Of a stretch of DNA of 64,000 nucleotides, positions 11,777 to 59,077 are shown one piece after another. The stretch is from an uncultured Gemmatimonadota bacterium (GTDB lineage: Bacteria > Gemmatimonadota > CAZMKB01): NCBI GenBank assembly GCA_964654825.1, contig CAZZKG010000003.1:26531-90530 (forward strand). Direction: 5' to 3'. A model generated the notes under the pieces. That model was not told where the DNA came from. It saw only the letters and a program-made list of their open reading frames with translations, and ran no database searches. Position 1 is the first letter of the stretch. Each line of letters begins with the position of its first letter. Both the position numbers and the translations under genes were made by a program.

Positions 11777-11826
11777 AGAACCTGGTCCCCTTTTGACAGA
11801 ACATGAGGAGAAGCGGTCGGCACACG

Positions 11827-14214: not shown

Positions 14215-14228
14215 CATGTGGGTAAAGG

Positions 14229-14591: not shown

Positions 14592-14616
14592 CACTACTCC
14601 CCAAAAAGACCGGAGT

Positions 14617-30204: not shown

Positions 30205-30223
30205 AAGCAGAGAGGACTGGAGT

Positions 30224-31363: not shown

Positions 31364-31366
31364 TTG

Positions 31367-42505: not shown

Positions 42506-43893
42506 AGAAAAAGAGTGATAAAACCGGAAATGATCACAAGGTCGTACTGATCGTCGAGGATGACGACAGTGTCAGAAGAAGCATCGATATTTCCTTGAAG
42601 CGGGCCGGATACGGGACCCTGATCGCAGAGAATGGTGACCAGGCGATCACTGCGTTGAGGAACAGGTATGTCCACCTTGTCCTTACGGATCTCAGGATGC
42701 CCAAAACCGACGGGCTCGAACTGCTGAGAGCCGCGAAAGTGATCAGACCGGAGGCCGAGGTCATCGTGATGACCGCGTATGGAACAATCGAGACCGCGGT
42801 CGAGGCGATGAAAGTCGGCGCGTACGATTTTATAGAGAAACCGTTCAACCGCCAGACGCTCCTGGCACTCGTGAGAAAAGCTCTCGAGAAACAGTCACTC
42901 GTCGTCGAGAACAGGTTGCTCAGGAAAAAACTCGAGGGGCTCGAGGACAAGCCGCTGTTCATCGGAAAATCCAGGGCTTCGAGAGGAGTTCTGAGGCTGG
43001 CCGAGCAGGTCGCAGCCAGTAAAGCAACCGTGCTCATCCAGGGGAAAAGCGGGACGGGGAAGGGTCTGGTCGCGAAACTCATTCATGAACTGAGCGACCG
43101 GAGGGGAGGACCGTTCGTGCACATCAGCTGTGCCGCCATTCCCGAAACGCTCCTCGAAGCGGAACTCTTCGGATACGAGAGGGGTGCCTTTACCGGAGCG
43201 ATCGCACGGAAGGAAGGCCGGTTCGAAATGGCGGCCGGTGGCTCGATCTTTCTCGACGAGGTGGGCGAAGCGCCACCTTCCACGCAGGTGAAACTCCTGA
43301 GGGTCCTTCAGGAGGGAGAATTCGAACGCCTCGGCGGCAAGAGGACCTTGAAATCCGATGCGCGTGTCATCGCCGCGACGAATCGGAATCTCCTCGAAGC
43401 GATGCAGGCCAATATGTTCAGGGAAGATCTCTATTACCGGCTCAATGTGATCACCATCACCCTTCCCACTCTCAGTGAGAGGACGGAAGACATACCGCTT
43501 CTGGCGCATCACTTCCTCAGCCACTACGCGAGGAAGAACGGCAAACGGGTGAAAGGGGTATCCCAGGATGTGCTCGACCTGTTCAACGACTACATATGGC
43601 CCGGCAACATCAGGGAACTCGAAAATGTAATCGAACGCGCCGTCGTTATCAGCCAGGACGAGTACATCGATGTTGCCGATCTGCCCGATGAGCTCAGGAG
43701 GCGGAGGATACCGACCGATAAAGTGCTCCATATCCCGATCGGTACGAGTCTGAGAGAGACGAAGAAACTGCTCATCCTCGAAACTCTGAAGCACACAAAC
43801 GGCGACAAGGGGACATCGGCAAAAATCCTCGGCGTGGCGACCAGGACCATCTACCGTCTCCTGGAAGAAGAGAAAGACAAAAAGAAGAACTGA
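42502..43893 (+). CDS. sigma-54-dependent response regulator (NtrC family: receiver + AAA+ + HTH)
   Basis: Receiver (VLIVEDDD, HLVLTDLRMPKTDG). Walker A GKSGTGKGLVA. GAFTGA motif. ESELFGHE-like ELFGYERGAF. C-terminal Fis-type HTH. Confidence 0.9.
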   Translation: MKKKSDKTGNDHKVVLIVEDDDSVRRSIDISLKRAGYGTLIAENGDQAITALRNRYVHLVLTDLRMPKTDGLELLRAAKVIRPEAEVIVMTAYGTIETAVEAMKVGAYDFIEKPFNRQTLLALVRKALEKQSLVVENRLLRKKLEGLEDKPLFIGKSRASRGVLRLAEQVAASKATVLIQGKSGTGKGLVAKLIHELSDRRGGPFVHISCAAIPETLLEAELFGYERGAFTGAIARKEGRFEMAAGGSIFLDEVGEAPPSTQVKLLRVLQEGEFERLGGKRTLKSDARVIAATNRNLLEAMQANMFREDLYYRLNVITITLPTLSERTEDIPLLAHHFLSHYARKNGKRVKGVSQDVLDLFNDYIWPGNIRELENVIERAVVISQDEYIDVADLPDELRRRRIPTDKVLHIPIGTSLRETKKLLILETLKHTNGDKGTSAKILGVATRTIYRLLEEEKDKKKN

Positions 43894-43916: not shown

Positions 43917-43932
43917 TGGCACAATAGTTGCT
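43917..43932 (+). promoter_or_regulatory. sigma-54 (-24/-12) promoter: TGGCACA-atag-TTGCT
   Basis: Exact match to the consensus TGGCACG-N4-TTGCW. GG at 43918-43919 and GC at 43930-43931. 100 bp upstream of the CDS at 44033 and immediately downstream of the NtrC-type activator gene. Confidence 0.6.
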
Positions 43933-44032: not shown

Positions 44033-44452
44033 ATGGAGAAACTCTCCCGGGCAATCCTCATCGAACCCGATGCCCTCTTCAGAGAAGCACTGAAGAAAGT
44101 TCTTGAGAGAGAAGGGTTTAAGGTTCTCGAGGCATGTTGTCTGGGTGAGGCCCTCCCCCTGATTCTCGGGTCGAACGTGTCCCTGATCACCACGGAGTTA
44201 AAACTCCCGGACTCGGAGGGACCGGAGACGATTGACCGGCTCCTCGACGTATCACCGGATTCTCAGGTGATCATCCTCACCGCCTTTCCCGAGCTGATAC
44301 CGAATGGCGGTTCTGATCGTTATTCCATTGAAAACGTTATATTTATGAGGAAACCGGTCGGTTTGAAGGATCTCCTCGAGAGAATCTCCTGTCCCCAAGC
44401 GGCGAAAACCCAGAAAATGAAAGACAAAATGTCAGGCGAAATCTCCTCATGA
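44033..44452 (+). CDS. receiver-like domain protein with non-canonical phosphorylation site (Asp->Glu)
   Basis: AILIEPDAL in place of DD. LITTELKLPDSEG in place of the LxxDxxMP phospho-acceptor Asp. Conserved T (IILTAF) and K (MRKPV). Confidence 0.5.
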   Translation: MEKLSRAILIEPDALFREALKKVLEREGFKVLEACCLGEALPLILGSNVSLITTELKLPDSEGPETIDRLLDVSPDSQVIILTAFPELIPNGGSDRYSIENVIFMRKPVGLKDLLERISCPQAAKTQKMKDKMSGEISS

Positions 44453-44628
44453 GAGTTGATTTTGCCTGAATGTCGCATCCGGAGGTTTTCTCACCTCACT
44501 TCTGTCAGACTGAAGTTGGAGTTGCTGAGGAATATCCTCCCGATCGAGAATCGCTTATGTAATAACTTGGGATATAAGTAGTTAGAGAATATACTCACAG
44601 CCTCGACAGTGTTGATTCCTGGCACGAT

Positions 44629-44644
44629 GGTTGCTTCTCTCTCA
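44629..44644 (+). promoter_or_regulatory. sigma-54 (-24/-12) promoter: TGGCACG-atgg-TTGCT
   Basis: Perfect consensus. GC at 44642-44643 lies 27 bp upstream of the ATG at 44671 of the first NHL gene. Confidence 0.65.
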
Positions 44645-44670: not shown

Positions 44671-45618
44671 TTGATTTTCTCTGTATCTCACAGACTGATT
44701 ATTTCCGCATTTCTACTGGTTATCGGGACTGTCGGGGCGGACCTTTTTGCCGAACCTGACGTCACAGTCGAAAATGTCACCTACGGTAAGTCACAGAACC
44801 TCATCTTTCAGGCCCCGAGCAGCATCTATTATGATACCAGAAAAGCCGAGATCTATGTCACCGACTCGGGCAACGCTTCTGTTCTCATTTTTAATAGCCA
44901 GGGCAGTTTTCTCTTCAGTTTCAGACACTGGGTGAAGCGGGACGGCAGAGTGATACCCGGCGAGCCCAGAGATATCGTCGTGTCAGGACGCGGGTACATG
45001 TACCTCACCGATGCTCTCTCCCGGGAGATCGACATCATCAGCGTGAGGGGTGAGAAGATAGAGACGATCGATCCCGGAGATTACAAACCTTACCGTGACA
45101 AAGTAGTGTATCCGCAGTACATGGCGATCGACCCGGCTGACACATTGTATGTCACCATTGATGGAGATGTCAAAGAGGTCCTCGTTCTGGATCCCGAGCT
45201 GAGGTTCGTGAGATCGATCACAGGCACCGGAGGCGGATTCGGGGTCCTCACCGGGATAGCGCTCGATGAGTCGGGCAGGGTGCTGGTCACAGACATCGAA
45301 GGGCCCGAATGCGTGCAGGTTTACTCCCGGGCCGGCGAGTTTCTCTTCGGTTTCGGCGTCAAAGCAATAGGTGATGAGAATTTTTCCCATCCTCACGGTC
45401 TCGCCGTCACCTCGGAGGGAGACATCTGGGTCGTCGACTCGTTCCGGCAGGTCGTCAAAAGATTTACACGTGATGGTACGTTCAAGGAAATGGTCGGTGG
45501 GTTCGGATTCAGGCCCGGTGATCAGCAGTATCCGATCGGGATAGACTCGGATCAGAAAGACAGGATTTTTGTCGCAGAGAAAGTTGGTCGCAGGTTTCAA
45601 ATACTGCGGGCTCACTAG
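44671..45618 (+). CDS. secreted NHL-repeat (six-bladed beta-propeller) protein
   Basis: Signal peptide. Repeated blades of the form IYVTD..., LYVTIDGD, RVLVTDIEG, IWVVDSF and RIFVAEK. Confidence 0.75.
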   Translation: MIFSVSHRLIISAFLLVIGTVGADLFAEPDVTVENVTYGKSQNLIFQAPSSIYYDTRKAEIYVTDSGNASVLIFNSQGSFLFSFRHWVKRDGRVIPGEPRDIVVSGRGYMYLTDALSREIDIISVRGEKIETIDPGDYKPYRDKVVYPQYMAIDPADTLYVTIDGDVKEVLVLDPELRFVRSITGTGGGFGVLTGIALDESGRVLVTDIEGPECVQVYSRAGEFLFGFGVKAIGDENFSHPHGLAVTSEGDIWVVDSFRQVVKRFTRDGTFKEMVGGFGFRPGDQQYPIGIDSDQKDRIFVAEKVGRRFQILRAH

Positions 45619-45686: not shown

Positions 45687-46721
45687 TTGAGGAGATTCAC
45701 AACTGGGGTCGTCGGAGCAGTGGCTGTACTCGCTCTTGCAAGTTTTGCCTTCGCGGGTGACTACCATCATGGTAGTACACTCAACTGCTCCGAATGTCAT
45801 GTTATGCACTACAGTCAGTCTCACGGTTATGATGGTGGTGGAGTATTCACTCCGCTGGGCCCTGACGGTCCATACGAATATCTCTTGAGAAATGAGATAA
45901 ACGACCTGTGTCTCACCTGCCACGACGGACAGACATTCGCTCCGGACGTCTTTGAAGCAGGCACGCAGGTTGGACTGGTCAGGCAAGCCGGTGCGCTGAG
46001 TGAGGTGGGTGGACCTTCGCCCTACGAGGAGACAAACGGTCACACTCTCGGGACGACGGATGCTCCTCCTGGAAATGATGCAGGCTGGACACCGGATCCG
46101 GACCAGGGTCTGACATGTACAGACTGCCATCAACCTCACGGTTACGGCGGTCCGACGGATGATCCATACAGGAACCTCAGCCCGAACTCGGGCGGCGGTT
46201 TCCACGCGTCCGTCACCTACGCTGTCGGAACGAATGATCTCGCCATGGACACCTACGAAAGGGTGAATTCAGGGTCGGATCACTATTCCTTCGACAACGT
46301 AGACTTCAACGAGCCTGATCCCACGGGGTCCGGTTACGCCGCCTGGTGTAAGACCTGTCACACACTGTTCCACGGTGACAAGGGCGGCAGCGAGGTCGGC
46401 GGTGCCACAGGCGAAGAGTGGTTGAGGCACCCTCAGGCGGATGCCGACGTCGGTGATGTCGGTGGTGGACATTCAAGCGCTGATGTTTTTGTGGCTGATG
46501 ATGTCTATCCGAAGGTGATGACCGCTACAGAGAACTGGGCACCAACTGACCCGGCTGATGTGACGGATCACACGCCATCGTGCTTCTCGTGCCACAAAGC
46601 CCACGGGAACCAGAATCCCTTCGGGCTTATCTTCCTGGGGACAACCCTCCCCATTACGGAAGAGGGCACGGGCGACGGAGTGTATGTAACACTCTGTCAA
46701 CAGTGCCACGTGCAGGGTTAG
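45687..46721 (+). CDS. multiheme c-type cytochrome (6 CxxCH)
   Basis: Signal peptide. CSECH, CLTCH, CTDCH, CKTCH, CFSCH and CQQCH motifs. Confidence 0.85.
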   Translation: MRRFTTGVVGAVAVLALASFAFAGDYHHGSTLNCSECHVMHYSQSHGYDGGGVFTPLGPDGPYEYLLRNEINDLCLTCHDGQTFAPDVFEAGTQVGLVRQAGALSEVGGPSPYEETNGHTLGTTDAPPGNDAGWTPDPDQGLTCTDCHQPHGYGGPTDDPYRNLSPNSGGGFHASVTYAVGTNDLAMDTYERVNSGSDHYSFDNVDFNEPDPTGSGYAAWCKTCHTLFHGDKGGSEVGGATGEEWLRHPQADADVGDVGGGHSSADVFVADDVYPKVMTATENWAPTDPADVTDHTPSCFSCHKAHGNQNPFGLIFLGTTLPITEEGTGDGVYVTLCQQCHVQG

Positions 46722-46797: not shown

Positions 46798-47715
46798 ATG
46801 ATGAGATGTATTACAATGTTTTCGCTTCTCCTCCTCCTCGTGGTGAACACGGGTGCCGAATCTCAGATACTTCACTTCTCCCTCACCGAACGGTACGCGC
46901 TCTCCACCTTCCCCGGGGAGGGTGGCTTCGGGAGGATTTCCGACGTTTCCTACAGTCTCGATCTCGACGAGATTCTGGTGGCTGATGAGGTGAGGAGGAG
47001 AATTTTCACCTTCAAATCGGACGGCACTCCCGAGCAGGCTCTGGGAGTCGCCACCGATATCCCGCCGCCGTCTGCGACGGTTCCTGGTGGGGATGGGAAG
47101 GTCTATATCGTCGAGGCCCGGACGGGCAAGCTTTTTACGCTGAATCGTGTTGAAGGAGAACAAGTTGTTCCATTTCGAATAACCGGTGAAAAAATCATGG
47201 ATGAGGTCCGTGTGAGCGGTCTGGTGAGAAGCCGGGCGGGTGTTCTTTACCTTGTTACCGATGACGGGAAACAGATCATCATGTGTGATGGGGAGGGGCA
47301 TTACCGCGGGATGAGTGACCGGGGAGTGAGGCTCGGGAGGCTCATCGCGATCGATGTCGATGACCGTGGGAGGATCATCGCCGCGACCCGTGGATTGATC
47401 CCCCTCCGACTGTTCGATGGTTCGGGTTCTTTTTTGAGGAATATCGAGATCAGGGATCTCGCGACGGATATGTCGAGATCCGAGATCGGAGGTGTCGCAT
47501 TCGATGCCCAGGGGAGGGTGTGGCTCACATACCCCGTGGATGGTCTCGTCAGGGTGTTCGATGAAACCGGAACGCTTCTGGACGAGATCGGGAGCTCGGA
47601 GATACCCGGCGGACTTTTTTCCCCGGCTGATATCGAGATCACCCCGATGGGCGATTTACTTATCCTCGAACGGGGATCGAACCGGGTACGCTGTTTCTCG
47701 ATGGAATTACAGTGA
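46798..47715 (+). CDS. secreted NHL-repeat beta-propeller protein
   Basis: Signal peptide. Blades KVYIVEARTG, VLYLVTDDG, RIIAATRG, RVWLTYPVDG and DLLILERG. Confidence 0.7.
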   Translation: MMRCITMFSLLLLLVVNTGAESQILHFSLTERYALSTFPGEGGFGRISDVSYSLDLDEILVADEVRRRIFTFKSDGTPEQALGVATDIPPPSATVPGGDGKVYIVEARTGKLFTLNRVEGEQVVPFRITGEKIMDEVRVSGLVRSRAGVLYLVTDDGKQIIMCDGEGHYRGMSDRGVRLGRLIAIDVDDRGRIIAATRGLIPLRLFDGSGSFLRNIEIRDLATDMSRSEIGGVAFDAQGRVWLTYPVDGLVRVFDETGTLLDEIGSSEIPGGLFSPADIEITPMGDLLILERGSNRVRCFSMELQ

Positions 47716-48623
47716 AAAATAAATTCTTTCCTGTTGTGATGATACCACTGCTCCTGGTCTCCGTCTTTACAGATGTCGGAGAGGGAATCGCTGAGGTGCG
47801 CCTGCAACTGAAGCCCGCGGCAATGCTCACGGCACCGGGAGCCAGGCTTTCTTCGGTCGCTTACTCCGATGTCTGGGATGAGATCTACGCCGTGGATATG
47901 CTTACCGGGGATATCCTGGTGAGCAAAATGAAATCTCTAAGGTTCGATAAGCTGGAAGTGCGAGGGGAGCTCAAAGCATACGCTCTCACCGTCGGGGATG
48001 AGGATTTTCTGTTCGTCACTGACCTCCGCGGGTCCGGCGTGACCAAGATCACACCCGCTGGGGATATCGTTACGAGAATCGATGTGGGCACGGAAGAGGC
48101 TCCCGGTACCTGTCTCGGCAGGATAAGGACAGGCCCTGAGGGCAGGATCTATGCCGTCGAGCGTTCCGGGGACAGGATTTTTATTTTTGATAACAAGCTC
48201 GAGTCCATGGAGATTGTTCACCTGGGATCCCCGTCCGACACCCTTACGGTCGTGGATCTGACATTCGGTGAAGGCGGGACGATTCTGGCTCTTTCTTCGA
48301 AAGGCCAGGTACTCCGGAAGTTCGATGGTTCTGGAACGTATCTGGGAGGGTTCGGGATCCACAGTACGGACAAGAGCGCATTCTCGCTGCCGAGTGCGAT
48401 CACAAGGGGACCTGATGGTAATCTCTGGATAGTCGACTCCTTCCAGCACACTGTAAAATTGTACTCACAGACTGGTGATTTTCTCTACGCTCTGCTCGAT
48501 ATGGCCGCGTCCGGGAAAGGTCTCTACTTCCCGGTGGACATCGTATTCATCTCGAGGGACCGGGTTGCCTTACTGGACAAGGGATCATCGAGTATAAAGT
48601 TCTTCGAGGTGGAAAGCTCCTGA
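47712..48623 (+). CDS. secreted NHL-repeat beta-propeller protein
   Basis: Overlaps the upstream stop by 4 bp. Blades IYAVDMLTGD, FLFVTDLRG, RIYAVERSGD, NLWIVDSFQH and RVALLDKG. Confidence 0.7.
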   Translation: MKNKFFPVVMIPLLLVSVFTDVGEGIAEVRLQLKPAAMLTAPGARLSSVAYSDVWDEIYAVDMLTGDILVSKMKSLRFDKLEVRGELKAYALTVGDEDFLFVTDLRGSGVTKITPAGDIVTRIDVGTEEAPGTCLGRIRTGPEGRIYAVERSGDRIFIFDNKLESMEIVHLGSPSDTLTVVDLTFGEGGTILALSSKGQVLRKFDGSGTYLGGFGIHSTDKSAFSLPSAITRGPDGNLWIVDSFQHTVKLYSQTGDFLYALLDMAASGKGLYFPVDIVFISRDRVALLDKGSSSIKFFEVESS

Positions 48624-48633
48624 CGGTGATCGT

Positions 48634-50730
48634 ATGACAGGATGGTTCGAAAGAAAAAGCGTTTATTTCGGCCTGGTACTCGTTCTTTCGGCGGGGAACC
48701 TGACCGCCGATGAACATCATGACAGTAATGAGATTCCATGCTCCGACTGTCACACCATGCATTACGGTGACGTCACGTTCGACAGAGAACCGCTGCGCCC
48801 AGGAGGTCCTTTCGAGCACCTCCTGCTGGCGCCGGAGGACGAACTCTGCCTCAGTTGCCACGATGGTACAGATCCCTCCGCTCCGAACGTTGTCTCAGGA
48901 GAAGGGGCGGAGTTGTCCGGAGGGTGGTTCACGCTGGGATCCGGTTCTGATGAGAACGGACATACACTGGGAAGCCGCGAGCTTCCACCGGGGTCGACAC
49001 GCGACCGAGTCGATACGCGATTGCGATGCATCTCCTGCCACGATCCGCACGGGAATAAATATTACCGGAATCTACGCCCGGCTCCCGGGGGAGGGGAAGG
49101 ACCCGGCCTGACATCCGGGAGAGAAACAGCCGGATCGAGTAACACGAGCGTGCTGATGCTGGATGCCTCGGGTGCCTCTAGGTATGCCCCGGAGAGTGTA
49201 CGGTTTCATGGATCGTTACAGACGGGTCAGGGCGCGCACATTTCTGCATGGTGCGGGGGCTGTCACACCATGATGCACGGCGATGGAGGAGATCCGGAAA
49301 TGGGTGGTTCGTTGTACGGGCACCGGGAAGCGAAGACTGTCTGGCTGCAGCATCCGGTAAAAGGTATCCCGATGTCTCTCTCCGTCAAAAACGGACACGA
49401 TGAGAACAGGGGCTGGTTCGAAGATTACGCTTCGAGACTCTCGGTTGCTTCTTCGGGAGAAGTCCCGGGCACTCCGGCTGCGAGCGACAACGAGATTACA
49501 TGCCTCACCTGCCACGCCGCCCACGGCAGCGGTTTTCGTTTCTCCCTCATTTACGACGACGCCGAAACAGTGCTCGAAAGAGACGGTCGGCGATTGAGTC
49601 AGAGCTGCCGGCAGTGCCACCGGTTCGGTCACGAGCCGTTTGAACACACTCTTCACGGTGATCCTGAGAACGGCGTCCAGAGGACAGGTTCACCCGACGA
49701 GCGGGGTGAGTGCAGTCAATGTCACATTATGCATGGCGCGGTCGAGAGCGGTGTTACAGGCGGTGAGGCGTTCCCCTATCTCCTCTTTACCGAAAACGGC
49801 AACAATCTCTGCTACGGAGGAGGCGATGCCGGAGGATGTCACCGTGACAGGCCGTTCAATTATCCGGCGCGGGAAAGCGATCGAATGCCGGAGTATGCGG
49901 ATAATCCCGGTTACTTCGAGTTCAACAACGGCGCCGTTCGCATTCCCGGGGTCAACAAACGCAACCGCTGGCCCGGAGAGCAGGCCTACGAGAACCCTCT
50001 GACGTACAAAGGCGGGAAGTTGTTCTCCCCGCACGCATTCGATCAGGACATGCCGATAGTGGATGAATCCGGACAGGGGGCCTGCCGGAACTGCCACGAT
50101 CCTCACGAGGGTGATGGATCACATGATCTTCTGGTGATGGAATACGGTCCGGTGAGCGGTGCCGGTGAAATCAAAGCCCCGGCAGCGTACGATCTCTGCC
50201 TGGGCTGTCATTCGTTCGAGGGGCCGGTGGGTATGGACATCGAGAACAAATGGATCCGTGACTACTATGATTCATCGATCAACGAGGATCTGACCACCGG
50301 CCACCAGATACGCTTCAATCCCCGTGTAGCCCTGTCATGGCCGAGCAACGTGGAGCTGGGGGACAAGTTGCCATGTTATGACTGTCACAACCCCCACGGT
50401 TCCTGGGGAAATGATGGAACGAATCCGAACGGTTATCTGATCAGCGATGAGAGGCCGGATTGGAGCGGCCTGACCGACACTCTGGATGATCCAGGACAGT
50501 CACGGAGATTCTGCCTCGGCTGCCACATCTCCTCTGATGGCGAAGCGGGTTCACGGTCAGTGGAAGGCATTATCATGAATACGATTTCGAGTCGAAAAGG
50601 CCACTTGTCCTCATCCGGGGCGTCGTGTCATACCTGTCATGGTGGTGATTATTCGACCTCCAACTCATTCAATGTGCATCACCCGGCTGGAGGTGCGGTT
50701 GCCATCGAGAAGGAAAAACAGATCCGTTAG
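48634..50730 (+). CDS. multiheme c-type cytochrome (12 CxxCH)
   Basis: Signal peptide. Twelve CxxCH motifs. The N-terminal CSDCHTMHYG...LCLSCHDG module is shared with the 6-haem and 7-haem cytochromes. Confidence 0.85.
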   Translation: MTGWFERKSVYFGLVLVLSAGNLTADEHHDSNEIPCSDCHTMHYGDVTFDREPLRPGGPFEHLLLAPEDELCLSCHDGTDPSAPNVVSGEGAELSGGWFTLGSGSDENGHTLGSRELPPGSTRDRVDTRLRCISCHDPHGNKYYRNLRPAPGGGEGPGLTSGRETAGSSNTSVLMLDASGASRYAPESVRFHGSLQTGQGAHISAWCGGCHTMMHGDGGDPEMGGSLYGHREAKTVWLQHPVKGIPMSLSVKNGHDENRGWFEDYASRLSVASSGEVPGTPAASDNEITCLTCHAAHGSGFRFSLIYDDAETVLERDGRRLSQSCRQCHRFGHEPFEHTLHGDPENGVQRTGSPDERGECSQCHIMHGAVESGVTGGEAFPYLLFTENGNNLCYGGGDAGGCHRDRPFNYPARESDRMPEYADNPGYFEFNNGAVRIPGVNKRNRWPGEQAYENPLTYKGGKLFSPHAFDQDMPIVDESGQGACRNCHDPHEGDGSHDLLVMEYGPVSGAGEIKAPAAYDLCLGCHSFEGPVGMDIENKWIRDYYDSSINEDLTTGHQIRFNPRVALSWPSNVELGDKLPCYDCHNPHGSWGNDGTNPNGYLISDERPDWSGLTDTLDDPGQSRRFCLGCHISSDGEAGSRSVEGIIMNTISSRKGHLSSSGASCHTCHGGDYSTSNSFNVHHPAGGAVAIEKEKQIR

Positions 50731-52360
50731 TACCGGGATCTGCCTGCTCTTCGCTCTGATCGCGGGATCGGGAGTATTAGGAAGAGCGAGCGGGCAGGCG
50801 AGATTGGGAGGAAGATTGAACCTGTTTTATCAGGAATCGAGGCTGGGAGACCTGTACTCCAGGAATTCCAACCAGAATCTGGATCTAACGATCTACGATG
50901 ATCTCTTTGCGAAGAACATGATTTCCCTGTCATATCTCATGGAACGAAAAACAGGATCCTCCCAGCCGCAGGATTTCCTGAGGCACAGGATCAGATCGAC
51001 CATCACCGGCAGAGCCTTCGTCTTTACTTCCGAGTATTCACCCCCTCACACGCTGAGGGGGACAATCGGGGAAACTTCTCAGAAATCGGACAGGAAGAGA
51101 TTCCTTCTGGGAGTGAATCCCGAGGATTACCCGGTATTCTCACTCTCCTACGACCGATCCGACCGCCACGGCGGAGCCGGCAATTTCAGAGTGGATTCTG
51201 TGAACGAGAACTCACTCGCTGCGACCAGTTATGACTACCGATTTGCCGGCGCACGCGCGACGTTCAGGGAGAGGAAGACCACCAACCACCTGGACACGGG
51301 TCTCAACCGAAGATTGAGTGAAGGCACCGGCGGCGTGACACTGGAAAGCAGGCTTGGCCCAATCGGGAGTTTCATGGCCAGCTATGACGGTCTGCTCTCA
51401 AAGGAAAAATTTGGGGGGAGGGACAGGGCCCGCGTGAGAATCGACAATGTGCGGGGACTCTTCTCTTCGAATCCTGCCAGGTGGCTCACTCTCTCGGCCA
51501 ACTTCCTCGGGTCAATCATTGACAGGGAAAACGAGACCGCCAACAGGACTCTATCGCAGGAGCTCTATACCGCGGCAACGTATCAGCCGAGGGAATACCT
51601 TCAGTTCCAGTTTGCGAGAGACATCAGGGAAACAGAAGAAGACGGCACGACGACACTCTCGGATTATGCGAGGGCCCAGAGTACGATTCAGGGTTATCTG
51701 AGGGACGGCATCCGGGGCAGAGCGTCGATCCAGAGGACATTCGTCATCAAAAGTGAAGAGGGAGCATTTCCGTCGAACGGTTATTTTTTCAACCTGGACA
51801 CCGACTTGATGCCCGGAGCGATACTGGCATTCGATCTCAATGTGACGAAGAGCGAGAATCCCAATGCACAGATCGGCACCTACCAGGTCAGAAAAGTGGT
51901 TGATCTGAGAGGCTTCCCGAGATCCGACCTGTCGATCAATTTCGCGTACCGGACCCTCCAGTTCGGCAACTCTCTCGATCTGCTCGGTTCGAAGACGTAC
52001 GATGTCGAATTAGATCTGAACTACCGGCCGAAACCGAGATTTTCAACAATTCTCACCCTCACCCGGAGCGTCGACAGGCGTGTGCTCGGTGGAGCGGGGT
52101 TGTTTCTGAGCTCCACGACGACATATTCACTGGCCGGTGGAAGTCACCTGAGCTTCATTTACATCCGCCGCGATGTGAGCGGTGCTATTATCCAGACTCC
52201 CGGCGTCAGTGCGCAGGGTACCTATCCCAATAACTATCTCCTCGAACTGGTGATCCTGATGGCACGGCAGACGAGGCTCAGCGTGAAATATGATATCAGG
52301 GATCTCTCCCAGGGCAGCATCAGCACCGTGCTGGGAATAACTTTCATCAAGAGGTTTTAA
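50672..52360 (+). CDS. putative outer-membrane beta-barrel protein (candidate porin partner of the cytochromes)
   Basis: Positively charged n-region followed by a hydrophobic signal segment (TGICLLFALIAGSGVLG). Alternating-polarity strands throughout. C-terminal ...GITFIKRF ending in aromatic Phe. Start uncertain. Overlaps the upstream cytochrome 3' end. Confidence 0.45.
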   Translation: MCITRLEVRLPSRRKNRSVSTGICLLFALIAGSGVLGRASGQARLGGRLNLFYQESRLGDLYSRNSNQNLDLTIYDDLFAKNMISLSYLMERKTGSSQPQDFLRHRIRSTITGRAFVFTSEYSPPHTLRGTIGETSQKSDRKRFLLGVNPEDYPVFSLSYDRSDRHGGAGNFRVDSVNENSLAATSYDYRFAGARATFRERKTTNHLDTGLNRRLSEGTGGVTLESRLGPIGSFMASYDGLLSKEKFGGRDRARVRIDNVRGLFSSNPARWLTLSANFLGSIIDRENETANRTLSQELYTAATYQPREYLQFQFARDIRETEEDGTTTLSDYARAQSTIQGYLRDGIRGRASIQRTFVIKSEEGAFPSNGYFFNLDTDLMPGAILAFDLNVTKSENPNAQIGTYQVRKVVDLRGFPRSDLSINFAYRTLQFGNSLDLLGSKTYDVELDLNYRPKPRFSTILTLTRSVDRRVLGGAGLFLSSTTTYSLAGGSHLSFIYIRRDVSGAIIQTPGVSAQGTYPNNYLLELVILMARQTRLSVKYDIRDLSQGSISTVLGITFIKRF

Positions 52361-52959
52361 TGGAGAGAATATTTTCGAAAATCGATTTGAGAGGCCTGAA
52401 AGTTGCAGTTTTTCTTGTACTTATCCTGTCAGTACAGCAGTGTGGAGGTCCCCGGAGGTTCGTGCACCCCGAGGCCGATGTCTCGTACTACGAGCGGCTT
52501 GGCCTGCTGTCGTTCGAGAACCTCGCCACTGACCGGGTCGCAGGTGAAAAAGTCACCAACGCGTTCCTCACGGAACTGTTGATCTCGAAGCGGTTCGAGG
52601 TCGTGGAGCCAGGCAGGGTCAACAGGGCCTCGAGAGAGCTCGGGCTTCCTTCTCCACTCATAGGCGGCGAGCTCACGCCCGAGGAGGTCAAGGAACTGGG
52701 TGAGCAACTCGGGGTCGAGGCGCTTTTGAGGGGTGTGGTTCGTGAATATGAGATGGTACGCATCGGGCAGACACAGTACCCGCTGGTCACCCTCGACATC
52801 GAATTGCTGGACGTAGCGACCGGGACCACCGTCTGGGTTATCAGTCATACGAAAAAGGGAGGTCCCAACCTGCCCTTCGTCAGTGTTGGAGAAACGTTCA
52901 CCCTTGGAGAACTGTTGCAGGAAATATGTCACGATATCGTATCGAAAATCCCGAAATAA
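52360..52959 (+). CDS. lipoprotein, LpoB/TolB-N-like fold (putative)
   Basis: Signal peptide with Cys (LSVQQCGG). Pattern LLSFENLATD...FEVVEP...LG..LGVEALLRGVVREYE resembles the LpoB/CsgG/TolB-N fold family. Paralogous to the next gene. Confidence 0.4.
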   Translation: MERIFSKIDLRGLKVAVFLVLILSVQQCGGPRRFVHPEADVSYYERLGLLSFENLATDRVAGEKVTNAFLTELLISKRFEVVEPGRVNRASRELGLPSPLIGGELTPEEVKELGEQLGVEALLRGVVREYEMVRIGQTQYPLVTLDIELLDVATGTTVWVISHTKKGGPNLPFVSVGETFTLGELLQEICHDIVSKIPK

Positions 52960-53555
52960 GACGAATCAGGTACCCGATCCTGATCTTCGCGCTCCTCTTG
53001 TTGATCTGTTCCGGTTGCGGACCGACACCGCGGACTTACCTGAACGATGATATCAATACACTTCAGGGGTACCGTGTAGCGCTCTTGCCACTCGACAACC
53101 TTAGTGGAGTGGACGGTGCCACCGAGAAGATCGATGAGCTTCTTCTCGTCGAGCTGCTGAGGACCGGCTCTTTCCAGGTCATCGAACCCGGGGAAGTCGA
53201 AAGGGTGCTCCTGGAACTGAGGATCCGGAGGACCTCCGAGCTTTCTCTGGAAGATATGACTGCGGTCTCCCAGCGGTTGAATGCGGATGCTCTCCTTGTG
53301 GGGTCGGTGCTCGAATACGGTAGAAAAGAATCGAGATCAATCGGCGGTGGACAGGTCCCCAGTATCACCATTGTACTCAGACTGGTGGATGTCAAAAACG
53401 GACAGGTCCGGTGGGCGTCCTCACACTCGAGGACCGGTGATGATGCGGAAAAGGTGTTTGGGATCGGGAGGATCAGGGATCACAGCAGACTCAGTAGAGA
53501 GATCGTCAAAGAGATGCTCGAATCATTAGAGCTGACAGTATCGGCACAGAAATGA
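52926..53555 (+). CDS. lipoprotein, LpoB/TolB-N-like fold (paralog)
   Basis: Lipobox-like LLICSGCG. VALLPLDNLSG...FQVIEPGEV...ADALLVGSVLEYG parallels the previous protein. Confidence 0.4.
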   Translation: MSRYRIENPEIRRIRYPILIFALLLLICSGCGPTPRTYLNDDINTLQGYRVALLPLDNLSGVDGATEKIDELLLVELLRTGSFQVIEPGEVERVLLELRIRRTSELSLEDMTAVSQRLNADALLVGSVLEYGRKESRSIGGGQVPSITIVLRLVDVKNGQVRWASSHSRTGDDAEKVFGIGRIRDHSRLSREIVKEMLESLELTVSAQK

Positions 53556-54022
53556 GGGTTGTTACTATGTCCAGGTTCGTGATGATTGTTTTCCTTCTCT
53601 GTTTGACAACAATGACGGGGTATTCGGATGTGCTGAGTGAAGAGACACCCCCCGCTGACCCCGGGTCGATTACCCTTCTGGCGAAGCACCGGCTCTACCC
53701 CGATTTTTCCGAACAACACACCGTCGCCATGAACCAGAGATTCGCCATATCCGATGAGGGGTACGAAGCGGTCATCACCAGGTATCTCCCTGATTTCGCC
53801 ATCCAGATCACCGATGAGGGGAAGAAGATATTCTCCAAATCGACAGAGGCCAACAATCCGGCATTCTGGATCGTCGTGTACAAGGACAGTGCGGCGGTAG
53901 ACAGTGTGTGGGCGTTTTCTGTCAGGGGAGCGCCTCATTTTTCGAGGAATTCATTCATATATTTCGAGATCCTCGAGTTCGATTCAGGGGACACCTCTGG
54001 TGAAACGGAGGAGGGGCAATGA
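53552..54022 (+). CDS. small secreted hypothetical protein
   Basis: Signal peptide. No recognised domain. Its 4-bp overlaps with both neighbours suggest translational coupling. Confidence 0.4.
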   Translation: MRVVTMSRFVMIVFLLCLTTMTGYSDVLSEETPPADPGSITLLAKHRLYPDFSEQHTVAMNQRFAISDEGYEAVITRYLPDFAIQITDEGKKIFSKSTEANNPAFWIVVYKDSAAVDSVWAFSVRGAPHFSRNSFIYFEILEFDSGDTSGETEEGQ

Positions 54023-57000
54023 GGAGAACGGGTTTCATTTTTGCAGTCATATTCTTCTCTCTCGCAGTTCTGATTCTTGCAGGGTCTCTCGAGGGCCGTA
54101 AAAAATGTTATGACTGTCACAAAGAAAAGAAGAGTGAGTTTCTGTCGCATCCGAACGTCCACAAACCCGTGAAGAATGAGGACTGCGAAGATTGCCATCG
54201 AAGGCACGGTTTCGCCCAGACCCTTCTGCTCAAACGTGAGGGCAGGGCGTTGTGCACGGAGTGCCATCCGGGCATCGAAGATGAATTGAGCAAGAATGTG
54301 ATACACGATCCGCTCGAGACCGGCCAGTGCAATGCATGTCATGATCCCCATGCCTCTGACGCGGATGCTCTCGTCCGAAGTGAGGATATCGCCGGTCTCT
54401 GTTTTACGTGCCATACCGAACTCGGATCGCCACCCGAGGGTAGCCGGATCCACAAACCCTTCGAGGAAGGTCGGTGCATGGATTGTCATCAACCACATTC
54501 CTCCGATGCCGAAGGACTGCTGGTCCAGGATGAGCCACAGCTCTGCTACGGCTGTCACGAAGAGGAGAAGATACTTAAAAAACAAGGCCACTCTATTCTC
54601 GCGGCCGGGATCGCCACCTGTACCGATTGTCACTCTCCTCATTTCTCACCGGTTAAATCATTGATCGACACTCACGCCCACGAGCCGTTCCGTAATTCGG
54701 AATGCGATATATGTCATATCGAAGAGGGAGGAAAATTCTCTTCCGAACTCGTGGAGGAAGTCCCCGGCCTCTGTATGATGTGTCACGATACCATCTCGGA
54801 GAAGATCGGACTGGCCGTACCTCATGCTCCGGTCGCATCAGGTGAATGTCTCATGTGCCATAATCCGCACAGGAGTGACAGAGAGAAGCTGCTCACCGAC
54901 AACCAGAAGATGCTCTGTGCAGAATGTCATGAAGAGGCTGCCGGGAGAGGAGGCGCACAATCGGTACACGATCCTTTCGAGACGGGCAATTGTACCGGAT
55001 GCCACGATCCTCACGGCTCCGACAACCAGGCTCTTCTCGATACATCCGGCAGGGAACTCTGTTCCACGTGTCATGCCGACCTTGTGGAGAAGCTGGATTC
55101 GGCACCACACAGTCATCCGCCGGCATCGGATCCGGGTTGTGAACACTGTCACCAACCGCATGACTCGAAGATGAAGCACCTTCTCACCGATTATCCAAAA
55201 AACCTCTGTTTCGAGTGTCACGAAGATGCGAGAGCTCAGGGGAGATTTTCCCTTCAGCATGTGCCCTTCGACGGGGGTGATTGTGGGGCATGTCACGAGC
55301 CTCACGCCTCCGAACAGGACGTTATGCTCAGACGGTCTCCCGAGGAATTATGCATCACGTGCCACGCCGACATAGCGGCAAGGGTGAATGCGACTCATCC
55401 ACATCCTCCTGTGATGGAAGGGGCCTGCCTGAGCTGTCATGTCCCTCATGCCGCTCAGGGTGATGAGCTTCTCGTCTCGGGCCAGAGTGAGATATGCGGC
55501 ACCTGTCATGACATGGGGCTGGAAGGAATAAGCCACGTTCATGGGGCGCTCGAGGAAGGGAAGTGCAGCGGCTGTCATGATCCTCACGGCGGTGAAACAG
55601 AGCATTTCCTGAAAGCCGAGGGGAAAGAGCTGTGTTACAGCTGTCACTCCGAATTCCGGAAAAAGGAAGAGGACCCAATCGTACATCAACCGGTGAAAGA
55701 CGGGGAGTGTAATAAATGTCATCTTCCTCACGGTTCTACGGTGAAATGGAATCTTGTTGATGAGGTCTCAGCCCTGTGCGGCAACTGCCATGATTTGAGC
55801 GACGAAGGAGCCGGGATGGCACACAGGGATCTGGATATGGAATCCTCCACCTGTACATCCTGTCATGATCCCCACAGTTCCGAGAAGGAGGGGCTTATTG
55901 CAAGGAATGTTCACGAACCATTCGAATCCGGTGTGTGTGAAGCCTGCCACGAATTCGACCCTGCTACGGGTCAGGCCGCGCTCACCGATGATCAGGTCGA
56001 GATCTGCACTGACTGTCACGAAGACATCCTCACCGGCACTCATATCCACAACGCAATCGAAGATGTCGGTTGTACGGCTTGCCACAGCCCACACGCTTCA
56101 TCGAGGGATTTCCTCCTGATCGACAACAGAAATTCCATATGCATAGAGTGCCATCCCGATCACTCGGCAGATCAGGAGTTCACATCGAGTCATCCCATGA
56201 TCACCCGCGGTGAGTGTGAGACATGTCACGTACCTCATTCCGCAGACAATAACAAATTACTCGTGTCGAATCAGCCGGGTCTCTGTTTCGAATGCCACGC
56301 GAGTGTCGAAGCTGATAAGAACTACAACATGCATGCCCCGTTCGCCGGAGGTATGTGCACGGATTGTCACAGTCCGCACACCTCTCAATCAGTGAAACTT
56401 CTGACTAATGACGTTCCCGGTCTCTGCCTGTCATGTCATGGAGGAGATATCCCTGGCCTCAGGAGAAAACACGGCGGTCACCATGTCGATGGGGGCAACT
56501 GCGCAGTGTGTCATGATGCTCACTGGACTCCGCCCGGTTCACAGTCGCTACTCTATCCGGTGGTTCATGAACCTCTCAATTCCGGATGTGACGTGTGTCA
56601 TCCGAGGGGTATCCTCGCCGGGACGGAGAAGCCGGAAGACCTGTGCCTCGGCTGCCATGACAGAATCGTAGAAGATACCGACAGATACGTGCATCAGGCT
56701 TTGCAGAAGAGAGGGGGGTGCACGAACTGCCATAATCCACACCGGGGGTACGGGAAGGAATTACTGAAAAAGGAAGGTGATGATATCTGCTTCACCTGCC
56801 ACGATGAAAAAAGTAAAACCGGAAGAAGAGTTGTACATGAACCAGTTCCTGACGGATGTCTCAATTGTCATTCAGCACACAGTGCGGGTGAAGAGTTCCT
56901 GCTCCCGTCGCCTGTGAACGAGCTCTGTGGTACCTGCCACGAGGCGGAGCTCCAGATGCACAGCCATCCGTCGGGAGGGAGTGCGAAGGATCCGAGGACC

Positions 57001-57126
57001 GGGGAAGCGCTCACCTGTGCGAGCTGTCATGACGCTCACTCGAGTGATGTGCAGACCCTGCTCCGTGCTGATCCGAAAAAGGAGCTGTGTCTGGGATGTC
57101 ACTACCTGGATAAAAATTTTCAGTAA
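54019..57126 (+). CDS. giant multiheme c-type cytochrome (~42 CxxCH in 1035 aa; c7/c3-like tandem di-haem repeats)
   Basis: Signal anchor. I count 42 CxxCH motifs. Most sit in repeating units of the form C..CH.PH.S......L....LC..CH, about one haem per 25 aa. Confidence 0.9.
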   Translation: MRRTGFIFAVIFFSLAVLILAGSLEGRKKCYDCHKEKKSEFLSHPNVHKPVKNEDCEDCHRRHGFAQTLLLKREGRALCTECHPGIEDELSKNVIHDPLETGQCNACHDPHASDADALVRSEDIAGLCFTCHTELGSPPEGSRIHKPFEEGRCMDCHQPHSSDAEGLLVQDEPQLCYGCHEEEKILKKQGHSILAAGIATCTDCHSPHFSPVKSLIDTHAHEPFRNSECDICHIEEGGKFSSELVEEVPGLCMMCHDTISEKIGLAVPHAPVASGECLMCHNPHRSDREKLLTDNQKMLCAECHEEAAGRGGAQSVHDPFETGNCTGCHDPHGSDNQALLDTSGRELCSTCHADLVEKLDSAPHSHPPASDPGCEHCHQPHDSKMKHLLTDYPKNLCFECHEDARAQGRFSLQHVPFDGGDCGACHEPHASEQDVMLRRSPEELCITCHADIAARVNATHPHPPVMEGACLSCHVPHAAQGDELLVSGQSEICGTCHDMGLEGISHVHGALEEGKCSGCHDPHGGETEHFLKAEGKELCYSCHSEFRKKEEDPIVHQPVKDGECNKCHLPHGSTVKWNLVDEVSALCGNCHDLSDEGAGMAHRDLDMESSTCTSCHDPHSSEKEGLIARNVHEPFESGVCEACHEFDPATGQAALTDDQVEICTDCHEDILTGTHIHNAIEDVGCTACHSPHASSRDFLLIDNRNSICIECHPDHSADQEFTSSHPMITRGECETCHVPHSADNNKLLVSNQPGLCFECHASVEADKNYNMHAPFAGGMCTDCHSPHTSQSVKLLTNDVPGLCLSCHGGDIPGLRRKHGGHHVDGGNCAVCHDAHWTPPGSQSLLYPVVHEPLNSGCDVCHPRGILAGTEKPEDLCLGCHDRIVEDTDRYVHQALQKRGGCTNCHNPHRGYGKELLKKEGDDICFTCHDEKSKTGRRVVHEPVPDGCLNCHSAHSAGEEFLLPSPVNELCGTCHEAELQMHSHPSGGSAKDPRTGEALTCASCHDAHSSDVQTLLRADPKKELCLGCHYLDKNFQ

Positions 57127-57184: not shown

Positions 57185-58360
57185 ATGAACATCAAGAAAA
57201 CTAGTATTTTCGCGGGTGTCACTGTCCTGCTGCTCGTGATCTCGCTGCCGGTGATGCTCCTGGCGCAGAGAAGCCGGGATTCGTTCAGGGGGGCGAAGAT
57301 TCACATCGGAGGGGTCAATCCCGACCTCCGGGCTCCCAATCTGCTGCCGCCCGGTGAGGGGCCGTATCACAACGGTGAGACCCTCGTCTGCACCGATTGC
57401 CACGTCATGCACGCCAGCATGCAGCATAATTACGCCGGCGGCACCGGGCCAGAGGGTGGAGTCGACGGGTTTCCATGGGAACCTGATCCCGCACCCACAC
57501 TGCTCAAAGCGCCTGATCCGCTCGATCTCTGTCTGGTGTGTCACGACGGAGTGACGGGGATTCCCGATGTCGTCGGGGAGGATGTCAATGGCCTTGTTCA
57601 GCGTGCCGGTGGATTTTTCGATGAACCCGAAGTCGAAACACCGAACGGACATGACCTCGGCAGAGATCTGCCGGATGGCTGGGAGTTCTGTATGCGATGC
57701 CACTGGGGTGATCCCGAGGACCAGAAAGTGACCTGTATCGACTGTCACAACCCTCACGGAAACGGGAACCCGCGCAACCTCCAGTGGGCGTCTGATCCCG
57801 ATGCGACACCTCCGGTCGGCCTGTTTGTCGATCCTGCAGCGGGTGATATGGACAGGTATGAAAGGTCGAGGGTGTCATACGGTACACTCAACTCGGAATC
57901 ACTGAGGGAAGTCACAAACATCTGCCTGGACTGTCACCACATATTTTCGGGAGGTACATACATCGATCCCGACGGTGATGGGATCCATTCCAGACACCCG
58001 ACATACGACAGTGAGCGAAGTTCGCCCAACAATATCCAGCAGGGTGAGGCCCGGGGCTCGACCAATCCTGATCACTGGGAAGACGGATCTGGATCCGGTT
58101 TCGACGGTACAGAGAGAGTGAAGTTCGTAGTCAGCGGGGCATCCGACTATGATGCTGCCCTCGTTGTCGACGCGTCGACGAACGGTGTGTTCTGTCTGTC
58201 GTGCCATTACGTGCACGGTTCGACCGAACCGTTCGCGCTCACCTGGCCGATCGAGGATGTGGTGAACTATGTCGGTTGTGACCAGTGTCACTACCTCGCT
58301 CAGGTTGATGAGATTCCGTTGAGCGGAGTTGTCAACAGGAGAGGATTTCAGACTCGATAA
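57185..58360 (+). CDS. multiheme c-type cytochrome (7 CxxCH)
   Basis: GGAGAG RBS. Signal peptide (MNIKKTSIFAGVTVLLLVISLPVMLLA). Seven CxxCH motifs. N-terminal CTDCHVMHAS...LCLVCHDG module shared with the 6- and 12-haem proteins. Confidence 0.85.
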   Translation: MNIKKTSIFAGVTVLLLVISLPVMLLAQRSRDSFRGAKIHIGGVNPDLRAPNLLPPGEGPYHNGETLVCTDCHVMHASMQHNYAGGTGPEGGVDGFPWEPDPAPTLLKAPDPLDLCLVCHDGVTGIPDVVGEDVNGLVQRAGGFFDEPEVETPNGHDLGRDLPDGWEFCMRCHWGDPEDQKVTCIDCHNPHGNGNPRNLQWASDPDATPPVGLFVDPAAGDMDRYERSRVSYGTLNSESLREVTNICLDCHHIFSGGTYIDPDGDGIHSRHPTYDSERSSPNNIQQGEARGSTNPDHWEDGSGSGFDGTERVKFVVSGASDYDAALVVDASTNGVFCLSCHYVHGSTEPFALTWPIEDVVNYVGCDQCHYLAQVDEIPLSGVVNRRGFQTR

Positions 58361-58531: not shown

Positions 58532-59077
58532 ATGAAGAAGAGTCTACTTGTTTTCCTGGCAGCGGGATTTGTCGCTGCTATGTTTCTCTCTCAAAGTGTC
58601 GCCAGCGCAGCCCAGTACGTCGGTACGAAAAAATGCAGGATGTGTCACATGTCCAAATCCAAGGGTGCTCAGTTTTCCGTCTGGGAGGGAAGCCGGCATG
58701 CCGGTGCATATCAGACCCTGACCTCGGATAAAGCGAAAGAAATCTACGCGAAAGCGGTTCCCGATGGTACCGGGAATCCGGCGGAATCGGATGAGTGTCT
58801 CGCATGTCACTCGACGGGATTCGGGAAGGCCGCGGAGCTCTTCGCGGGCACATTCGACAAGACCGAAGGGGTTGGTTGCGAAGCATGTCATGGACCCGGG
58901 AGTGATTATCAGAAGATGATCGTCATGAAAGACAAGGAGAAAGCGGTCGCGGCGGGGTTGAATATTCCGACCGAAGAAACCTGCAAGGGATGTCACAACG
59001 AAAAGAGCCCGACTTACAAGGAATTCGCGTTCGACACGTATTTTGCAAAGATCGCGCACCCGATTCCTGCGAAATAA
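58532..59077 (+). CDS. tetrahaem c-type cytochrome (periplasmic, c554/c3-like)
   Basis: GGGAGG RBS. Signal peptide. CRMCH, CLACH, CEACH and CKGCH motifs. Confidence 0.8.
   Translation: MKKSLLVFLAAGFVAAMFLSQSVASAAQYVGTKKCRMCHMSKSKGAQFSVWEGSRHAGAYQTLTSDKAKEIYAKAVPDGTGNPAESDECLACHSTGFGKAAELFAGTFDKTEGVGCEACHGPGSDYQKMIVMKDKEKAVAAGLNIPTEETCKGCHNEKSPTYKEFAFDTYFAKIAHPIPAK

Follow-up and report, generated by a model that had tools for sequence, protein, structure and literature searches.

How folded, haem-loaded cytochromes or filaments cross the outer membrane, or sit in it, is an open question in extracellular electron transfer. Here we analysed a 64,000-nucleotide stretch of DNA, referred to as the window, from an uncultured Gemmatimonadota bacterium (GenBank assembly GCA_964654825.1, contig CAZZKG010000003.1, positions 26,531 to 90,530 of the forward strand). 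A 13-gene cluster on its + strand, at approximately 44.0–59.1 kilobases (kb) and with 71 haem-binding motifs in total, includes three consecutive genes for a putative beta-barrel protein and two lipoproteins, Lp1 and Lp2. We propose, with a probability of roughly 0.55, that these three proteins form an OscEFG-type outer-membrane channel for the OmcS-like cytochromes of the same operon. The trio is a leaner and distinct relative of a poorly understood machine that was described in 2025 and connected with the assembly of cytochrome nanowires in Geobacter, and is not categorically new. Its three genes are listed below.

50672–52360, + strand: OscE-like outer-membrane beta-barrel, 562 residues, 28 predicted strands (AlphaFold2, Foldseek, hhalign)
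52360–52959, + strand: Lp1, OscF-like/PelC-like lipoprotein, 199 residues, lipobox Cys28 (Pfam, PDB profile and OmcS-locus profile matches)
52926–53555, + strand: Lp2, OscG-like/PelC-like single-domain lipoprotein, 209 residues, lipobox Cys31 (Pfam, PDB profile and OmcS-locus profile matches)

Homology of the trio to genes in OmcS-family clusters

The initial annotation of this DNA had regarded the lipoprotein pair as an unusual companion for a porin-cytochrome module. This view did not survive the comparison with OmcS-family clusters, as the trio turned out to be a conserved module, homologous to a trio located downstream of OmcS-family genes. The omcS-companion (osc) operon of Geobacter sulfurreducens was described by Shen et al. 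(2025, Cell Chem Biol 32:239), as summarised in a 2026 paper (PMC13194489), and this summary attributes folding to OscH, secretion to OscE, OscF and OscG, and filament morphology to OscD; it also identifies GSU2501 as oscC, GSU2495 as oscI and GSU2494 as oscJ. We sought osc-type loci in a species-genome collection with an OmcS sequence as the query and obtained 78 loci with full-length OmcS-family genes at 50–67% identity, from Geobacter, Geomonas, Citrifermentans, Anaeromyxobacter, Nitrospirota and others. G. sulfurreducens was not among these 78 loci; the probe may be imperfect, or the genome may be absent from or masked in the collection.

Profiles of the barrel, Lp1 and Lp2 were run over all six-frame open reading frames of the 78 loci. 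An adjacent pair on the same strand, consisting of a protein of approximately 200 residues followed by one of 365–465 residues, matched the Lp1 and Lp2 profiles in 52 loci. The Lp1 profile matched the shorter proteins at E values of about 1e-29 (about 100 bits), and the Lp2 profile matched the longer ones at 1e-37 to 1e-52 (104–176 bits), for which the Lp1 profile scored 29–73 bits. In addition, 30 of the 78 loci encode a protein of approximately 750 residues that matches the barrel profile and, in the loci inspected, lies directly upstream of the pair, as exemplified by locus L082, where the barrel gene (12827–15061) is followed by genes at 15063–15656 and 15631–16728. Many of the remaining OmcS-family loci are truncated contigs. 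When the window-type barrel family was aligned with the OmcS-locus barrel family in hhalign, the two matched end to end with a probability of 99.8% and an E value of 1e-28, with an insert of approximately 200 residues in the longer family. Lp1 and the ~200-residue proteins of the OmcS loci have the motifs VREYxxVRxG and TxKGG in common.

In Geomonas oryzae S43, the gene order is a kinase, an NHL protein, the OmcS homologue, a 465-residue beta-propeller lipoprotein, a 744-residue barrel, a 197-residue lipoprotein, a 365-residue lipoprotein, a 598-residue prolyl isomerase and a 26-haem cytochrome. This order fits the osc letters D, E, F, G, H and I, as well as the roles given for OscH and OscE/F/G in PMC13194489. 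The annotations of GSU2497 as a lipoprotein and of GSU2506/2507 as a sigma-54 regulator and kinase are consistent with the osc assignment. Like OscE-OscF-OscG, the window trio comprises, in the same order, a large barrel, a ~200-residue lipoprotein and a second related lipoprotein, with components that are homologous by profile. The likeness extends beyond the trio. Osc-type clusters and the window alike encode NHL/beta-propeller proteins, a giant periplasmic cytochrome with paired CXXCH motifs, and a sigma-54 regulator with a kinase, and the OmcS-family cytochrome of the former has a possible, OmcS-like counterpart in the window.

There are also clear differences. The window barrel is approximately 190 residues shorter than the barrels at the OscE position of OmcS loci and lacks their central insert, and the lipoproteins at the OscG position have two tandem PelC-like (Lp2-like) domains whereas Lp2 has one. 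The giant cytochrome has 42 haems in the window and 26 in the Geomonas cluster, and the window propellers are of the NHL type only, in contrast to the OscD-type propeller of osc clusters. The OmcS-like subunit of the window has only 344 residues and is 25% identical to the Geomonas OmcS-family protein. The window also encodes an extra conserved small secreted protein, which the OmcS-family loci lack. The window comes from an uncultivated, Glassbacteria-like lineage, and the osc cluster of G. sulfurreducens from Desulfuromonadia. This leaner version, with a shorter barrel, single-domain lipoproteins and no prolyl isomerase, could ease structural work or heterologous reconstitution.

The extra sequence of the longer OscE-position barrels (L082 12827–15061 and 25 similar reading frames from L013 to L090) lies in the middle of the protein, and in one of them this region gave a sub-threshold match to a galactose-binding-like (F5/8 type C) domain. 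Two-domain proteins at the OscG position were seen at L039 17835–19124, L072 15610–16725, L082 15631–16728 and in approximately 40 other OmcS-family loci.

Two other systems resemble the window in theme. In the Desulfovibrio ferrophilus clusters DFE_0448-0451 and DFE_0461-0465, NHL propellers likewise accompany extracellular multihaem cytochromes. The Uet cluster of Candidatus Tenderia shares this theme, with the NHL proteins UetH/I, and adds the prolyl isomerase UetB and the barrel UetC. The published descriptions of these clusters, which we compared by theme only, contain no PelC-like lipoprotein pair. A literature search for LpoB together with a multihaem cytochrome and a porin, and for OscE/F/G, found nothing further.

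Conservation of the barrel-Lp1-Lp2 order

The full 13-gene order is kept where the barrel shares 58–63% identity with that of the window, namely in an assembly of Candidatus Glassbacteria and in three relatives from metagenomes, and likewise in one relative with a 33%-identical barrel. At a barrel identity of approximately 20%, the rest of the cluster is rearranged and two units remain unbroken, namely a cytochrome gene followed by barrel-Lp1-Lp2, and the small protein gene followed by the giant cytochrome gene. Because the gene order is conserved in diverged relatives, the open reading frames described here are real and not due to chance. Their + strand coordinates in the initial annotation were correct, as were the C-terminus ending in FIKRF reported for the barrel and the count of 42 haems in the giant cytochrome, which has exactly 42 CXXCH motifs.

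The initial annotation had also suggested a synteny check in related genomes. In all 10 independent loci examined, drawn from Glassbacteria-, Latescibacterota- and Zixibacteriota-labelled assemblies and from unlabelled metagenome contigs, the genes for the barrel, Lp1 and Lp2 lie next to one another in this order, and the trio is intact even where the rest of the cluster is missing or reshuffled. Nine of these loci also encode the giant cytochrome together with its small partner. Barrel-Lp1-Lp2, which stands alone in a Zixibacteriota genome, is thus an irreducible three-gene module. The core of the candidate machine is therefore kept well beyond Geobacter, in Glassbacteria-, Zixibacteriota- and Latescibacterota-labelled assemblies, and the variant occurs in lineages without cultured representatives. 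In these uncultivated sediment bacteria, it is likely to point to metal or electrode respiration.

The barrel protein

The product of 50672–52360, which ends in GITFIKRF, had been read as an outer-membrane barrel from its sequence, and structure prediction agreed with this reading. With a 52-sequence alignment from an exhaustive profile search as input, AlphaFold2 predicted 28 long antiparallel strands after a signal helix, without a plug domain, at a predicted local distance difference test score (pLDDT) of 89.6 and a predicted template modelling score (pTM) of 0.73; a 4-sequence alignment gave an unusable model with a pLDDT of 36. The exhaustive search placed the protein in a family of 72 representative proteins, almost all of 520–590 residues, and the relatives have signal peptides and C-terminal aromatic residues. 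A word-indexed protein search, in comparison, found only three or four relatives even with a deep alignment. In a Foldseek search against the PDB, the top match of the model was MtrB (6r2q_B, E 6.5e-9, query-normalised template modelling score 0.49), followed by 22–26-strand transporters, ushers and LptD. The model, the features of the relatives and the best solved fold match support the assignment of the 562-residue protein as an outer-membrane beta-barrel.

In the MtrCAB conduit of Shewanella, MtrB forms the porin sheath of MtrA. Like the window barrel, MtrB of MtrCAB (PDB 6r2q) is encoded among multihaem cytochrome genes, but it has 26 strands instead of 28 and no detectable sequence kinship to the window protein, and Mtr systems lack PelC-like lipoprotein partners. 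We considered and rejected membership of the barrel in the MtrB/PioB family, as no Pfam or NCBIfam family matched at E ≤ 1 and the likeness is at the fold level only.

The barrel protein is basic, with an isoelectric point of approximately 9.7, and the net charge is +12 to +25 in most orthologues. The cytochrome encoded directly upstream of the barrel has a net charge of -11 to -38, haem propionates excluded. A basic barrel and strongly acidic neighbouring cytochromes fit a protein-in-barrel arrangement but do not tell export and a static conduit apart.

An alternative start codon, TTG at 50699, is preceded by GGAGG 7 nucleotides upstream, would give a protein of 553 residues and is the start called in the Joint Genome Institute record. 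It is plausible as the start of the barrel, equally good as or better than the one at 50672. The length of 573 residues given earlier corresponds to the longest open reading frame, from 50639.

The lipoproteins Lp1 and Lp2

Lp1 and Lp2 are 31% identical over 174 residues (BLASTP, E 6e-22), and in both the lipobox Cys after a hydrophobic leader is invariant among 8 orthologues with 28–77% identity. The paralogy proposed in the initial annotation thus stands, whereas a recent tandem duplication does not: Lp1 and Lp2 form separate orthologous groups whose order is kept across phyla, which indicates that the duplication is ancient. More than 231 proteins belong to the Lp1 family; the few with an organism name come from Zixibacteriota, Latescibacterota, GN15 and similar uncultivated lineages, and annotations within the family are inconsistent (TolB-like, PelC, CsgG and LpoB).

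The LpoB/CsgG/TolB-N-like fold that had been suggested for the pair was borne out at the level of the superfamily. Pfam placed both proteins in the LpoB/CsgG/TolB-N/GNA1162 superfamily, with Lp2 matching CsgG (2.8e-12) and LpoB (1.1e-6) and Lp1 matching LpoB (1.4e-6), all above the gathering score. Within this broad superfamily, which LpoB and CsgG have in common with Lp1 and Lp2, the nearest relative is a different protein. Searched against the PDB, the Lp2 profile matched PelC (9h80_C, E 5.7e-10, profile positions 9–170 of 198) and the Lp1 profile matched a PelC homologue (5t11, E 5.4e-5), so that PelC is the closest solved relative of both. Two other identities were tried and rejected. Against the LpoB equivalog TIGR02722, with a cut-off of 110.55 bits, the two lipoproteins scored 26.3 and 25.1 bits, approximately 85 bits short. 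The CsgG match in Pfam spans only positions 33–156 of 210, CsgG structures were matched at E values of 1.2–1.5, and with a mature length of approximately 179 residues Lp2 is too short for the CsgG membrane hairpins. CsgG has two membrane-spanning hairpins in a mature protein of approximately 260 residues.

PelC (PDB 5t11, 5t10, 5t0z and 9h80) resembles Lp1 and Lp2 in size (approximately 170 residues in the mature form), in its lipid anchor and in having an outer-membrane barrel as a partner, and the PelC entries matched by Lp1 and Lp2 hold 12 chains each. As Marmont et al. are said to have shown in 2017, PelC forms a lipid-anchored ring of 12 subunits at the periplasmic face of the outer membrane and funnels the Pel polymer into the PelB porin. 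The two systems differ in that PelC is one homo-oligomer encoded in a pel operon, whereas the window has two diverged paralogues outside any pel operon; PelB has a TPR domain, whereas the window barrel has 28 predicted strands and no TPR; and the cargo of PelC is a polysaccharide, whereas that of the Lp1/Lp2 channel is presumably a cytochrome. We know of no prior report of a relationship between the osc-type trio and PelC.

The conserved motifs are VREYxMVRxG and TKKGGP..P...GET.TLGE in Lp1 and SRTGDD.E..FG.G in Lp2. A second Cys near the C-terminus of Lp1, at residue 190, is invariant in all 8 orthologues and could form an intermolecular disulphide, although neither Lp2 nor the barrel showed an invariant Cys that could be its partner.

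Proposed channel and competing explanations

In the model that we favour, the barrel protein would form an open barrel of 28 strands in the outer membrane, and Lp1 and Lp2 would be lipid-tethered to the inner leaflet of this membrane, where by analogy with PelC they would together surround the periplasmic opening of the barrel as a mixed ring or funnel. The 6-, 7- and 12-haem OmcS-like cytochromes of the sigma-54-driven operon would reach the cell surface through this channel and stay mounted there, assisted by the NHL propellers, and the 42-haem OscI-like cytochrome would carry electrons through the periplasm to the channel base. We infer the formation of the ring, its stoichiometry, the cargo of the barrel and any polymerisation of the cytochromes. 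The initial annotation had envisaged that the lipoproteins plug or gate the barrel or anchor it to peptidoglycan; judged by the PelC precedent, a lipid-anchored ring at the periplasmic opening of the barrel is more likely than a plug or a peptidoglycan anchor. Purely by extrapolation, a ring of 12 PelC-like domains could be made of six Lp1:Lp2 pairs here, or of four OscF:OscG pairs with three domains each in Geobacter-type clusters. With the PelC ring beneath the PelB porin as a precedent of understood structure for the lipoproteins, the model makes testable predictions of architecture and stoichiometry.

Several observations weigh against this model. The equation of the barrel with OscE, Lp1 with OscF and Lp2 with OscG is derived from gene order and homology in relatives (Geomonas, Geobacter and Nitrospirota) and not from the PCA genes, and the secretion role of OscE/F/G is taken from PMC13194489. 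No OscH-like prolyl isomerase or OscD-like propeller was found in the 64-kb window when all open reading frames were searched by phmmer with the Geomonas proteins (E ≤ 0.01). The window contains no full-length OmcS, and its 344-residue hexahaem protein is approximately 100 residues shorter than the OmcS homologue. In the closed Zixibacteriota genome CP070839.1 (L092), the trio stands alone at 8351–11282, in an operon that lacks cytochrome genes and is transcribed divergently from genes for a 741-residue NapC/NirT-type multihaem cytochrome and an NrfD-like membrane protein (11534–15071). Moreover, the ring of Lp1 and Lp2 rests on the analogy with PelC, and a large, empty predicted barrel with MtrB as its best structural match fits a static conduit equally well.

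Such a static conduit of the MtrAB type is the main alternative, possible but rather doubtful. Here the barrel would permanently sheathe one end of the 42-haem MtrA/DmsE-like cytochrome, or its junction with the 12-haem MtrC-like cytochrome, the lipoproteins would serve as a clamping collar, and electrons rather than proteins would cross the membrane. Ten stretches of the 42-haem protein match decahaem models of the DmsE/MtrA family, the 12-haem protein has similarity to MtrC/MtrF domains II/IV and is encoded by a gene that overlaps the barrel gene, and both the charge pattern and the association of the giant cytochrome and its small partner with the trio in nine of 10 loci would suit a conduit. 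MtrB ranks first among solved folds, but the barrel has no sequence kinship with MtrB/PioB (no Pfam match at E ≤ 1), and any large barrel scores against MtrB, TonB-dependent receptors and LptD. The homologues of the trio are found in OmcS clusters, for which the phenotype reported in PMC13194489 is one of secretion and assembly, and PelC-like rings are known from an export machine. The conduit and the export channel merge if the base of a filament sits permanently in the barrel.

A more radical version, which we consider unlikely, holds that the trio exports nothing. The mixed PelC-like ring would clamp one end of the single 42-haem polypeptide in the 28-strand barrel and, with the conserved small protein, this would create a wire in one piece that reaches from the periplasm next to the inner membrane out to the cell surface. 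If true, such a porin-cytochrome architecture would differ from those of Mtr, Pcc and Ext, and OscEFG of Geobacter would be a socket in which the filament is plugged and charged and not a secretion channel.

Because of the gene neighbourhood and the family thresholds that the lipoproteins do not reach, the two remaining explanations are much less likely. One is polysaccharide export of the PelBC type, in which the barrel and a PelC-like ring would export an exopolysaccharide matrix around the cell or the cytochromes, and the linkage to cytochrome genes would reflect co-regulation only. Although PelC is the closest solved relative of the lipoproteins, some databases name family members 'PelC', glycosyltransferase genes lie 12–20 kb upstream in the window and one Zixibacteriota trio has no cytochromes in its operon, this explanation is very improbable: neither pel genes (PelA, B, D-G) nor a TPR-porin gene lie alongside, the glycosyltransferases are encoded on the opposite strand with unrelated genes in between, and the trio is found in multihaem cytochrome operons in nine of 10 window-type loci and in 52 OmcS-family loci. 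The 28 predicted strands of the barrel also count against it, as the PelB barrel has 16. The other, an envelope-tethering role in which LpoB-like Lp1 and Lp2 would regulate or bind cell-wall components and so fix the barrel, is the least credible of all, since the LpoB matches above the Pfam gathering score and the LpoB annotation of some relatives are outweighed by equivalog scores of only about 25 bits each, by the higher scores of PelC, by the lack of any LpoB structure among the PDB profile matches listed, and by the lack of both a long disordered linker after the lipobox and penicillin-binding protein genes nearby.

Layout of the cluster and its promoters

Besides the trio, the cluster comprises the features below, all on the + strand.

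43917–43932, + strand: exact sigma-54 promoter consensus TGGCAC-N5-TTGCT, 0 mismatches, upstream of the response-regulator gene
44033–44452, + strand: single-domain response regulator (PF00072), at the same position in orthologous loci
44620–44635, + strand: second exact sigma-54 promoter consensus, 36 nucleotides 5' of the first NHL gene
44671–45618, + strand: NHL-repeat beta-propeller protein 1, 315 residues, signal peptide (Pfam NHL, 1.2e-19)
45687–46721, + strand: OmcS-like hexahaem cytochrome, 344 residues, 6 CXXCH (haem count; 25% identity to the Geomonas OmcS-family protein)
46798–47715, + strand: NHL-repeat beta-propeller protein 2, 305 residues (Pfam; Geomonas comparison)
47712–48623, + strand: NHL-repeat beta-propeller protein 3, 303 residues (Pfam; Geomonas comparison)
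48634–50730, + strand: 12-haem cytochrome, 698 residues, strongly acidic, with an OmcS-like N-terminal half and a region like MtrC/MtrF domains II/IV
53552–54022, + strand: small secreted protein, 156 residues, without a family, conserved in 8 loci
54019–57126, + strand: OscI-like periplasmic cytochrome, 1035 residues, 42 CXXCH as 21 paired motifs (motif count; 34% identity to the Geomonas cytochrome)
57185–58360, + strand: 7-haem cytochrome, 391 residues, weakly OmcS/OmcE-like (motif count; weak PDB and phmmer matches)
58532–59077, + strand: cytochrome c554-like tetrahaem protein, the last cluster gene, at the same position in orthologous loci

From the 12-haem cytochrome gene through the 42-haem cytochrome gene, all junctions overlap, by 1 to 59 nucleotides. 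The overlap between the 12-haem cytochrome gene and the barrel gene is 59 nucleotides long (32 if the barrel starts at TTG), the barrel and Lp1 genes meet in TAATG with an overlap of 1 nucleotide, the Lp1 and Lp2 genes overlap by 34 nucleotides, and the two junctions of the small protein gene, with Lp2 and with the 42-haem gene, are both ATGA with an overlap of 4 nucleotides.

The sigma-54 site at 44620–44635 is likely the operon promoter. Two exact matches to the consensus were seen in the window against approximately 0.06 expected by chance, by a rough estimate; at up to two mismatches there were 15 against 17.75 expected, with no enrichment overall, and the two exact matches, both at the start of the cluster, are the only meaningful ones. 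Upstream of the cluster lie genes for a PAS kinase and a sigma-54 activator (39845–43893), and a second kinase/activator pair lies downstream (60041–62564); this neighbourhood parallels GSU2506/2507 beside omcS. No tRNA or Rfam family was found within the 64-kb window.

Further upstream of the cluster (28981–32977 on the - strand, 33067–34722 and 24206–26200) are genes for three GT4 glycosyltransferases, a GHL15-like hydrolase and a beta-helix/NosD-like protein. A preprint has described sets of glycosylation genes next to OmcE clusters.

Cytochromes, NHL proteins and the small secreted protein

The 344-residue hexahaem protein matches the Geomonas OmcS-family protein at an E value of 7e-8, with the haem motifs in the same order, and in the N-terminal half of the 12-haem protein the haem motifs likewise follow the order of the OmcS homologue. 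Sequence searches of these 344- and 698-residue cytochromes against the PDB returned nothing useful, and no OmcS match for the 344-residue protein. The 7-haem cytochrome gave weak PDB matches to small multihaem cytochromes (9yuq_N, E 0.0027; 7tfs_A, E 0.056), which we take to be OmcE-type filament structures, and matched the Geomonas OmcS homologue in phmmer at 1.6e-5. The cluster may thus encode more than one filament-type subunit. The E value of the 42-haem protein against the 26-haem cytochrome at the OscI position, downstream of the Geomonas prolyl isomerase, is 1e-122. The window NHL proteins match the NHL protein encoded beside the OmcS homologue of Geomonas oryzae, with an E value of 5.6e-12 for NHL protein 1.

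The 156-residue small protein has no relative in Pfam, the PDB or the OmcS-family loci. A ResB-type periplasmic domain, suspected from its motif pattern, gained no support from the searches and was dropped. The gene is always directly upstream of the giant cytochrome gene, also where the pair has moved away from the barrel. Members of the family (window; L010 3290–3814; L012 971–1429) have approximately 150–175 residues, are secreted and sometimes bear a lipobox, with a giant partner of approximately 1040 residues and 42 haems; their invariant motifs are P..AI, NPA, WAF and PH.

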